Shown here piece by piece: positions 9,001-12,000 of a stretch of 16,457 nucleotides of DNA. Made by a program: the position numbers. The stretch is from a virus (taxonomy: Duplodnaviria; Heunggongvirae; Uroviricota; Caudoviricetes): IMG/VR virus record IMGVR_UViG_2526164603_000008. One strand, given 5' to 3'. Within the stretch, counting starts at the first letter, position 1; each line of letters begins with the position of its first letter.

Positions 9001-12000
9001 CAATCATCTTTGCCAGACCACGCTGGGTAAGCGTTGACAGGTTGATGAGTAAATCAGTTTCTGCGCGATCAACGTCACGCTGGGATAGTTTGCTGTAACT
9101 TGTTTGTTCCATTTCTTAAGATTTCCAATAGTGAATAGTTAGTTGAAAGGTATGCGTGGAAACGCATATGGCCTTAGTTGGTCAGATATATTGGGACTCG
9201 CTTTGTCAGCGACGTAGGACGAATGTCCATTGTGAAAATAGCGGTGTTACTTATGCAGCCAGAAGGTTCTTTTTGCTTATTTCAAGCATTTCGCTTGCTT
9301 GATATTTGCCACCAGAAATCTCTTCGATTTTTGATGCGTATTTAGTTTTCCCAAAAAACTCAGTCTTAGGGAGGAAGCCGTTTTTGAGCCACTTATAGAC
9401 AGCCCTTTCGCTAACTCCACAAGCCTTCGCAACTTCAGGGATGCCGACACCTTTAATCGGCTCATCAAGATTTTGCATAGGAATATCCTTTTTCGTACTT
9501 TCAGTACGTATTATGGTTGAACTGAAAGTTTTTGCAAGTGCTTTAGTATCGTACTCATGGTTCAGAATGAAAAAGTGCGCAAAGAATTCGCCCAGCGGCT
9601 AGCGCAAGCCTGTAAAGAAGCTGGTCTTGATGAACATGGTAGGGGAATGGCTATAGCCCGTGCCCTTTCTCTTTCGTCCAAAGGCGTTAGCAAATGGTTT
9701 AATGCTGAGTCTTTACCGCGTCAGGAAAAAATGAATGCGCTTGCGAAATTTCTAAACGTTGATGTTGTTTGGCTTCAGCACGGCACTTCGTTAAATGGAG
9801 CGAATGATGAAGATACTCTTTCATTTGTTGGCAAATTAAAAAAAGGGTTAGTGCGCGTGGTTGGTGAGGCAATTCTTGGTGTTGATGGTGCCATCGAGAT
9901 GACCGAAGAGCGCGATGGGTGGCTCAAAATTTATAGCGATGATCCAGATGCCTTTGGTCTTCGTGTGAAAGGAGACAGCATGTGGCCCAGAATAAAATCA
10001 GGAGAATATGTACTCATTGAGCCTAACACCAAAGTATTCCCGGGTGATGAGGTGTTTGTCAGAACCGTTGAAGGACACAACATGATTAAGGTTCTTGGCT
10101 ATGACAGAGATGGAGAATACCAATTTACAAGCATTAACCAGGATCACAGGCCTATAACGTTGCCTTATCATCAAGTAGCAAAGGTGGAGTATGTAGCTGG
10201 TATTCTGAAGCAATCTCGCCATCTGGATGACATCGAGGCAAGGGAGTGGCTGAAAAGTTCGTGACTTCATCGTCACATAGCTGGTAACCAGTGGCCTGAA
10301 GAGACGTTTGGGTAAGGAGGATAGATGGCGTTCAATGACCTTGAATATCAAGCAGTAAAAAAAGAAGTTCACCAATTCATTGAAAGCATAAGGCCGCCTG
10401 AACATATCCGCAATGAACTGGATATTGTTTATAGCATCAATGACCAAACGATAGATATCGGCGAACAGCGCCCCGTGTGGCAGGGCAATCCAGGTGAAAC
10501 AAACATCCTGCCATCAGCAAGAATCAAGTACATACGTTCTCTGGATAGATGGAAAATCTATTGGATGCGGAAGGATATGAAATGGCATCAGTACAGTACT
10601 GAACTTTCGCTGACTGATGCGCTTGAGCTTGTGCGTGCTAACCCGGATTGCTGCTTCTTCGGATGAGTGAAGAGACGTTTGGATGATGGATGGTCGCAGA
10701 GATGCGGCCTGATTCTAAAATAGGATATAAAAAATGAGAATACTAGGTGTTAGAGCGGCGCCCAAAGTTACATCTTTTGTTGTATATTGCACTAATGAGT
10801 CTGCACTCAAATGTGTTGATGTTATTAAAATACCTTCGACCTTAGACACACCAGAAAAATTAAAGTATGTGAGAAATAACATCCTCGACATTCTTAATTT
10901 ATATAATGTTGAATTAGCTGCCATACGCGTTACTGAATCAAACTCTGATAATCTTAGCATTGACCGCCTTTATATAGAAGCTGTTATTCAAGAAGCATTT
11001 TCAAGCAGTGATGTAAGAAAATATTACACTATTAGAAAATCTGGCATGAAATCATCATTGAACCTAACAGAGATCGAGTATAAAGAAATATTGAAGTCAC
11101 ACCGCAATATAAATGGAATCGATAATTCTGGTTTTACAACTGAAACAAATGAAGCTGTTTTGGCTGCACTATCTGCGGAGGTAAGGGGATGCTAACTCCA
11201 TACAAAAGAGCTGATGTAGAATTCGAATGGATTAGTGATCTAGAAGAACAGGGTTGTTTTTCAAAAGTATATCTGGCTCATGACAGACACCTAGCTCATG
11301 ACTTGGTGATTAAAGAAATAGAAAAAAAAGAAAACACTAACCACGACGACTACTTTAATGAAGCAAGGCTTCTCTATAAACATGCACATCCAAATATTGT
11401 GCAAGTTCAGTATGCTGCTCAATGTGAGAGCAATATCTATATAGCCATGCCATTTTATCATAATGGTTCGCTAAACCAATTAATGAAAAAAAATAATCTT
11501 ACAAGCAGGGAGATAATACGGTATTCCATTCAATTTTTAAGTGGACTTTATCATATACACTCAAAAGGTCTTATGCATTTTGATATAAAACCTAATAACA
11601 TTATGATATCAAACAGAAATGAGGCCATGCTATCTGACTTTGGATTATCTCAGTTAGTCAATGAGGAATCGAGAGCTGCGCCTGAGTTTGGATATCATTT
11701 TCATGTGCCACCGGAATATTTTTCTTTATCAACAAATGATTATAATTTCACATATGACATATATCAGGCAGGATTAACCATATATAGAATGTGTGTTGGA
11801 CATGATAATTTTGAAAGAGAAAGATCTGCATTTAGCACGATTGAACAACTCAGAGAGTCGATAATTAATGGCTGCTATCCATTAAAAGAGTATCCTCCCC
11901 ATATACATAAAAAATTAATAACAATAGTGAACAAATGCATTCATGTAGATCCAAATGAAAGATATCAATCCGTACTAGATGTACTAAACGATCTCTCAGC

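Follow-up and report, generated by a model that had tools for sequence, protein, structure and literature searches.

The DUF3024 gene that lies immediately downstream of the phage repressor gene cI in a lambdoid immunity region is framed by two copies of a 15-nucleotide (nt) sequence, TGAAGAGACGTTTGG, and both copies appear to be relics of the 3′ end of a repressor gene. Most likely, these relic tails act as short patches of homology at which repressors, the DUF3024 unit and modules further downstream are reassorted, and through which the unit can be lost. The DNA analyzed, hereafter called the window, is the 16,457-nt stretch of IMG/VR record IMGVR_UViG_2526164603_000008 (Caudoviricetes). Coordinates are window positions on the + strand unless another sequence is named, and the features discussed are collected in Table 1.

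A repressor-gene tail on both sides of one gene

The two copies, at 10297-10311 and 10668-10682, are the only ones in the window, as a search of both strands that allowed up to 2 mismatches returned no third copy. A match with 3 mismatches at 15500-15514 was dismissed as a chance resemblance; it sits in a gene conserved in all relatives. Copy 1 follows the cI stop codon (10262-10264) and ends 1 nt 5′ of TAAGGAGG, the Shine-Dalgarno sequence of the DUF3024 gene. It continues directly as GTAAGGAGG, after which comes the ATG of that gene at 10325. Copy 2 begins 2 nt past the DUF3024 stop codon (10664-10666). The first-pass annotation of this DNA, which described a perfect 15-mer occurring twice and framing one gene downstream of cI, was accurate in its coordinates and in its distances to the Shine-Dalgarno sequence and the stop codon. 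In close relatives the repeat is 19 nt long, namely, the 15-mer plus GTGA, and 933W has one change per copy in this 4-nt extension (GTAA after copy 1, ATGA after copy 2).

Besides the ori iterons at 8296-8361, the pair is the sole perfect direct repeat of at least 15 nt in the window, and two or more matches to the 15-mer were obtained in none of 200 dinucleotide-preserving shuffles. By our own arithmetic, about 0.006 exact 15-mer pairs within 400 nt are expected by chance in a 16.5-kb sequence. It is the comparative evidence, rather than this figure, that settles the question: numerous independent phages have this pair, again 356 nt apart, between differing flanks. Thus, although the window is 16.5 kb long and repeats of 9 to 12 nt are common in it, the shuffles and the recurrence in other phages refute a chance origin, whose probability we regard as negligible. 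This agrees with the first-pass annotation, in which the pair was judged unlikely to be accidental.

To place the 15-mer, we surveyed public viral contigs for exact matches, which gave at least 120 loci, and clustered 127 occurrences by flanking context. In lambda, the 15-mer corresponds to the last six codons of cI (ccT GAA GAG ACG TTT GGn, encoding PEETFG), which are normally followed by the stop codon. The left flank ...gttgtggggaaagttatcgccagccagtggcc, found in about half of the loci, is 100% identical to lambda 37132-37352, which codes for the cI C terminus, and other repressor families likewise end in the same tail, translated in frame. The tail copies of the window are not the in-frame end of an S24-family repressor open reading frame (ORF), as they are in lambda and several repressor families; because they lie after the cI stop, they appear to be relics rather than part of the gene. 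The frame past the cI TGA stays open for 16 codons and ends in a PEETFG-type tail. The sole homology between 933W-type and lambda-type repressor loci is a block of about 24 to 29 nt, consisting of CCAGTGGCC, the 15-mer and the stop region. While the placement of the repeat had been correctly described in the first-pass annotation, its identity as the terminal codons of a lambda-type cI had gone unseen.

The relic of the 933W-type phages is not maintained as coding sequence, because its frame is not that of the annotated cI stop in SH2026-type repressors (TGG TAA directly before CCAGTGGCC), one phage (L055) has a TGG-to-TGA nonsense change in it, and Lambda_2E9 (L007) has lost 11 nt of relic and tail. 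In lambda itself, the DNA past the cI stop holds a relic of the 3′ end of a second repressor type (...IGKVFWSAHS and two stops), which is followed by a further tail copy in L018 and L111. The DNA just 3′ of lambdoid repressor genes thus looks like a stack of repressor 3′-end relics.

Reassortment at the tail

The DUF3024 segment and its 3′ tail copy were found to be present or absent as a block. In megablast searches against phage records, matches to the LC616xxx Shiga toxin 2a (Stx2a) phages end at 10690 and those to H-19B and AU5Stx1 at 10313 and 10318, and SH2026Stx1 matches the window at 10273-10708 only, i.e., over the unit with both copies. The empty-site relatives AU5Stx1 (L008), L073, L074 and L112 carry one copy followed by gtgataggaagtaag, and LC616033 (L004) has copy, gene and copy followed by the same gtgataggaagtaag flank as AU5Stx1. 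The latter two are identical at 100 of 100 positions of the right flank, and at 97 of 100 and 289 of 300 positions of the left flank. L121 on the one hand and L052, L108 and L113 on the other form a second presence/absence pair, with 598 of 600 right-flank positions identical between L121 and L052. A single-gene cassette in the cI 3′ region, as suggested in the first-pass annotation, is therefore supported by relatives that lack 10312-10682 and retain one repeat copy between matching flanks, which is the check that it had proposed.

Wherever the unit occurs, the copies are 356 nt apart and the unit is 98 to 99% identical. It is found behind three repressor types (lambda, 933W and SH2026) and ahead of four different right flanks. 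Window 10265-10735 has matches in 380 of 5,426 complete Escherichia coli genomes, and in 227 genomes the unit is complete. Within the ranked sample, short matches hold the relic and copy 1 only, ending at 10313-10315, 2 to 4 nt past copy 1. A diverged DUF3024 homologue lies behind lambda-type and 933W-type repressors in L010 (reverse strand, 6205-6545) and L028 (4845-5185). It appears frameshifted (MEFNGHEYQAVKKKFIYSLKA and a stop, then another frame) and is probably a pseudogene; the tail copy before it is still exact, and the one behind it has decayed.

The 15-mer is not confined to the DUF3024 unit. About a dozen of the 127 occurrences were, by our count, chance matches in unrelated viruses. 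Among the loci listed, a stop codon always comes after GGn, and the sequence becomes unrelated within 1 to 7 nt. The 127 occurrences fall into 25 left and 44 right context classes joined in 63 combinations, and among the occurrences listed, there are 23 cases in which all four pairings of two left with two right classes exist. Among the same occurrences, 10 right classes follow the left flank of the 933W type and 19 follow that of the lambda type, with 8 common to both. Between context classes, exact identity past the 15-mer extends over no more than 9 nt on the left and 7 nt on the right for almost all pairs. Homology begins or ends at the shared sequence, and left and right flanks reassort independently. 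The reassortment of 25 left and 44 right contexts argues that the 15-mer serves generally as a mosaic junction, placed where the known accessory-gene hotspot between cI and N begins. With dozens of unrelated modules joined at it, the repeat is not the signature of a single insertion event. The block shared at copy 1, 24 to 29 nt, compares with minimal efficient pairing lengths of 23 to 27 bp for Red-beta and 31 to 34 bp for RecA, as quoted in PMC3945230.

A further scan, with a 23-mer in one genome per species, returned mostly lambda DNA contaminating unrelated assemblies and gave little information outside Enterobacteriaceae and Citrobacter. Assemblies of Pseudomonas, Shewanella, Neobacillus, Oceanobacillus, Helicobacter, Desulfovibrio and others (L129-L159) contained this 23-mer of the lambda cI tail. 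We rejected these as real prophages: their contigs either are 48.4 to 48.5 kb long or are tiny with a coverage of about 1, and are almost certainly lambda contamination. No description of the tail element was found in the literature searched.

Tail copies also bracket other segments. Small hydrophobic ORF segments lie between two or three copies in L063, L106, L111, L120, L125 and L127. A 72-nt segment encodes MREYLIVGVVTLLSVVAIVLMVA, its own stop codon being the TGA of the next tail copy, and a 111-nt segment encodes MRIGIAFPVIVFIVAVAFMAWFVVGGYATPGG. In phi80 (NC_021190, L175; 1198-1312), the ORF of the 72-nt segment likewise stands, unannotated, between tail copies. This 23-codon ORF, MREYLIVGVVTLLSVVAIVLMVA, directly follows the repressor gene at L175 1198-1312, L063 7551-7652, L111 3990-4217 and L120 4320-4421; in L111, it is followed by the second ORF, MRIGIAFPVIVFIVAVAFMAWFVVGGYATPGG, and then by a third tail copy and a terminator. 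The bracketed hydrophobic ORFs may encode small membrane peptides expressed in lysogens.

The right-hand copy is followed by atgatggatGGTCGCAgagaTGCGGCC, and the hairpin at 10692-10709 has a predicted folding energy of -12.6 kcal/mol (z = -2.3). This hairpin, which is without a T-run, was not scored as a terminator in a scan of the window. In L037, L049, L107, L040 and L111, a unit of tail, hairpin and T-run stands straight after the repressor gene and its own tail, and there the hairpin and T-run would constitute an intrinsic terminator. The left flank of L049 is of the 933W type. A hairpin with a T-run also follows the decayed tail copy downstream of DUF3024 in L010 and L028. Loss of the T-run at the point where the AT-rich L0083-stk module begins probably lets transcription from pRM reach stk. 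In other phages, mosaic breakpoints fall inside the hairpin itself (...gagatgc/tcgtagagc versus ...gagatgcggcc/tgattc).

The comparisons directly show what the repeat is, that it lies at junctions, the presence/absence pairs, the reassortment and the decay of untranslated copies. In the simplest history, the single-copy state would be ancestral. The starting arrangement would have been cI, tail and terminator. DUF3024 would have become nested between two relics, with a duplicated tail, and the L0083-stk module would have joined later, just past the hairpin, allowing pRM read-through. Copy 1 would thus be the relic of a repressor 3′ end, and copy 2 a second relic, belonging to the tail and terminator hairpin that directly follow cI in other phages. 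Recombination at the tails would let the unit, the upstream repressor and the downstream modules reassort independently and would allow deletion of the unit. The likely agents would be phage Rad52-type recombinases, with microhomology-mediated joining for the first event.

Several points weigh against this account. The survey required an exact 15-mer and cannot measure the real conservation of the tail. Copy 2 shares only 15 to 19 nt with other tails, which is below the quoted minimal pairing length. Exchanges at copy 2 must therefore be rare or draw on the neighboring hairpin as well, an option open to the 933W- and L052-type flanks, which share 38 nt over copy 2 and the hairpin sequence. As to how a second copy first arrived after DUF3024, illegitimate joining, unequal exchange and dedicated insertion would all leave the same product. 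Lastly, the three variant positions in untranslated tail copies (ccT/ccA, gaG/gaA and acG/acA) are all synonymous in the PEETFG frame, which could hint at residual coding or at a nucleotide-level constraint. The loci concerned are window 10265-10315, L004 3236-3259 and L161. The synonymous pattern and the in-frame 933W relic may be coincidental, or they may stem from rare read-through or from a recent import out of coding copies; when the variant tail AGAAGAAACGTTTGG was sought in a coding context, as for import from another cI allele, only untranslated contexts matched.

Alternative explanations and known systems

The first-pass annotation had also considered that successive cistrons are each preceded by a cis element, such as an RNA-processing site. 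Such an element on the pRM transcript (an RNase site, a coupling or re-initiation signal, or a regulator site), kept by selection, would account for the position of the 15-mer shortly before the start regions of various downstream ORFs, for the common GGnTGATG stop-start arrangements, for the mini-ORF ATGAGTGAAGAGACGTTTGGATGA that copy 2 creates in overlap with the DUF3024 stop, and for the conservative nature of the few variants in untranslated copies. However, the copies pair with different partners in predicted folds; copy 1 has a z of -0.07, only the hairpin after copy 2 is stable, and an RNA structure shared by the two copies was rejected. Copy 2, moreover, lies 52 nt before the next start codon, with the hairpin in between. 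Salmonella phage SE1, a distant relative, has an intact DUF3024 gene, but its flanking copies have decayed: TGATGAGATATTCGG, with a partial GTTTGG, precedes the Shine-Dalgarno sequence, and TGATGAGACCGCTTGAGG follows the gene. In L010 and L028, whose homologue looks frameshifted, copy 1 is exact and copy 2 has decayed to GAGAAAAGAGATTTAGG. With 11 nt of tail lost in Lambda_2E9, and the position of the 15-mer in lambda-type phages explained by coding for the repressor C terminus, we consider a cis element highly unlikely and have set this part of the first-pass annotation aside. Yet another explanation is that copy 1 is translated by TGA-C read-through of the 933W cI, yielding a minor isoform with a 16-residue lambda-like tail conserved as coding sequence. 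The relic is in frame with 16 open codons after the TGA, a TGA with C behind it terminates weakly in E. coli, and all variant positions of the 15-mer are synonymous in the relic's frame. Nevertheless, in-frame placement has a 1-in-3 chance, the relic does not share the frame of the annotated cI stop in SH2026-type repressors, is interrupted by TGG to TGA in L055 and is shortened by 11 nt in Lambda_2E9, and copy 2 would be left unexplained, all of which makes read-through extremely improbable.

The repeats might instead be the target or attachment-site duplication of a dedicated mechanism, such as transposition, site-specific recombination or integron-like capture at the 15-mer. The same short sequence does flank several small cassettes (DUF3024 and two hydrophobic ORFs), every cassette has a 3′-terminal copy, in the way that attC accompanies integron cassettes, and presence/absence is precise. 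The unit, however, codes only for the 113-residue DUF3024 protein, its single ORF, with no transposase or recombinase gene inside it, and no integrase gene is among the genes found in the cI-N interval of the window. The repeat scan of the window found neither terminal inverted repeats pairing the cassette ends nor attC-like palindromes. Copy 1 folds no better than shuffled sequence, the 15-mer is ordinary coding sequence in lambda cI, copies have decayed in relatives that keep the gene, and the length of the repeat varies (15 to 19 nt around DUF3024 and about 21 to 25 nt around the small ORFs, by our reading of the flanks). A transposable element with a target-site duplication was rejected, as the same 15-mer occurs in every context and around other cassettes, whereas a target-site duplicate would vary between insertion sites; nothing in these sequences seems to indicate duplication of the transposon type. 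An integron cassette was rejected too, for want of a foldable attC (z = -0.07 for copy 1) and of an integrase in the cI-N interval. We hold a dedicated insertion mechanism to be very improbable. Somewhat apart stands the idea that the tail block is a selected, portable recombination signal: each cI-N cassette would carry a copy at its 3′ end, defense genes would be exchanged in an integron-like but recombinase-independent manner driven by Red or Erf, and nucleotide-level selection would prevent the 24-nt block from diverging between repressor families, even though the codons next to it are saturated with synonymous change. The recurrence of the pattern is all that speaks for such a signal, and we regard it as unlikely.

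The preferred explanation, homology patches derived from repressor tails, has precedents. Susskind and Botstein are credited with the idea of modular evolution in lambdoid phages, and boundary sequences have reportedly been described at module junctions in comparisons of the HK620 type. As with those lambdoid boundary or linker sequences, a short shared sequence is found here exactly where homology starts or stops, and flanks reassort freely. Unlike them, the patch can be identified as a repressor gene's 3′ end, which some phages translate and others retain as a vestige, and it occurs two or three times in tandem register, bracketing single genes. The block is also near in size to the minimal pairing length quoted for Red-beta in PMC3945230, which covers relaxed homologous recombination by Rad52-like recombinases.

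Location and logic are those of the cI-N hotspot that houses lambda rexAB, 434 hex, BTP1 bstA and 933W stk. This interval is described as a hotspot of mosaic diversity holding rexAB and bstA in PMC8585504 (citing Degnan 2007); taken together with PMC3564112, its published genes also include hex and stk. The hotspot genes are non-essential exclusion or defense genes expressed in lysogens and co-transcribed with the repressor from pRM, which DUF3024 (PDC-S43) and Stk (PD-T4-6) fit. In contrast to the present data, descriptions in the literature searched deal with the genes present and not with the sequence at the hotspot's left edge.

Like a moron, the DUF3024 gene is present or absent among otherwise collinear relatives, with sharp boundaries. 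Unlike a moron, it has no promoter or working terminator of its own and is read as part of the repressor operon: a promoter scan of the + strand found no promoter-like site from the cI stop to the DUF3024 start, the nearest being inside cI at 10143-10171. Its base composition, 43 to 46% guanine plus cytosine (GC), also resembles that of its neighbors. Integron cassettes and attL-attR repeats offer a parallel in their small cassettes with a 3′ copy, arrays of two or three and precise presence/absence, but here there is no integrase partner and no attC palindrome, the repeat is part of a coding region elsewhere, and its copies decay, so that only the outcome is alike. The case is one of clear, fairly ordinary phage mosaicism at a known hotspot and involves no new kind of mechanism. 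What looks new is the identity of the junction sequence and the bracketing of single genes by it.

The immunity region and its accessory genes

The part of the window used for searches, 9557-11195, is 100% identical to the immunity region of the Shiga toxin phage 933W and close relatives. The gene order is cro (- strand), cI, L0084 (the DUF3024 gene), L0083, stk, L0081, the terminator tM and N. The DUF3024 protein matches Pfam PF11225 (E = 1.2e-30, residues 4-113) and PADLOC PDC-S43 (E = 4.4e-41, residues 1-113), in both cases over its full length, and judging from these profiles its gene is a candidate single-gene anti-phage defense gene that would be expressed within the pRM operon. A structure search gave no significant match to a solved structure. 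Within the literature searched, DUF3024 is mentioned in no paper and PDC-S43 only in a list of detected systems. Stk matches PD-T4-6 of PADLOC; according to PMC3564112 and PMC3430580, it is co-transcribed with cI and aborts HK97 infection.

The GC content is 43 to 46% across cI and DUF3024 and falls to 32 to 37% only from L0083-stk on. The L0083 stop and the stk start overlap at 11189-11195; with a GC content of 32 to 37% in both, the two genes look like one imported two-gene module. In the GenBank record AP004402, three "operators" and a second "cI maintenance promoter" are annotated inside L0083 (window 10980-11060). We did not accept these as real sites, as they bear no resemblance to the 933W oR sites and look like an annotation artifact. 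Downstream of N, a 30-nt direct repeat with 83% identity, ACCAGTGAACCGCCCCGGAAATCCTGGAGA at 13743-13772 and ACAACTGAACCGCCCCGGGTTTCCTGGAGA at 15658-15687, has its copies 1.9 kb apart.

Table 1. Features of the cI-N region discussed in the text (window coordinates)
Feature	Coordinates	Strand	Basis
cI repressor, 933W type, 235 amino acids, helix-turn-helix and S24 peptidase domain, stop TGA 10262-10264	9557..10264	+	100% identity to 933W cI region
Putative 3′-end relic of a different repressor gene, untranslated, continuing the cI frame past its stop	10265..10315	+	Translation, comparison with lambda cI end
Conserved junction block, CCAGTGGCC + 15-mer + G + stop TAA, about 24-29 nt	10288..10315	+	Flank comparison of loci
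Repeat copy 1, TGAAGAGACGTTTGG	10297..10311	+	Exact-match search, repeat scan
Putative mobile unit, 371 nt: 356-nt DUF3024 segment + 3′ tail copy, present/absent as a block	10312..10682	+	Comparison of relatives
DUF3024 gene (933W L0084), 113 amino acids, Shine-Dalgarno sequence TAAGGAGG at 10313-10320	10325..10666	+	Profile matches to Pfam DUF3024 and PADLOC PDC-S43
Repeat copy 2, TGAAGAGACGTTTGG, then A + TGA	10668..10682	+	Exact-match search, relatives
Hairpin GGTCGCA-GAGA-TGCGGCC; T-run replaced by the L0083-stk module here	10692..10709	+	Folding, relatives, terminator scan
AT-rich downstream module: RuvC-like L0083 (10734-11195), Stk kinase (11189-12235, PD-T4-6 match), L0081 (12238-12402)	10734..12402	+	ORFs, profile matches, GC content
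tM, intrinsic terminator closing the pRM operon	12401..12422	+	Annotation and terminator scan

These results pin the left edge of a prophage defense-gene hotspot to a block of about 24 to 29 nt from the last codons of the repressor, and this block can serve as an anchor for mining accessory and defense cargo downstream of lambdoid repressors. For annotation, they call for caution, in that such repeats are to be taken as relics and not as regulatory sites. The tails would explain the presence/absence polymorphism of DUF3024 (PDC-S43) among Stx prophages, and they indicate that single genes can shuffle between heteroimmune phages, Shiga toxin phages included, without a dedicated mobility enzyme.

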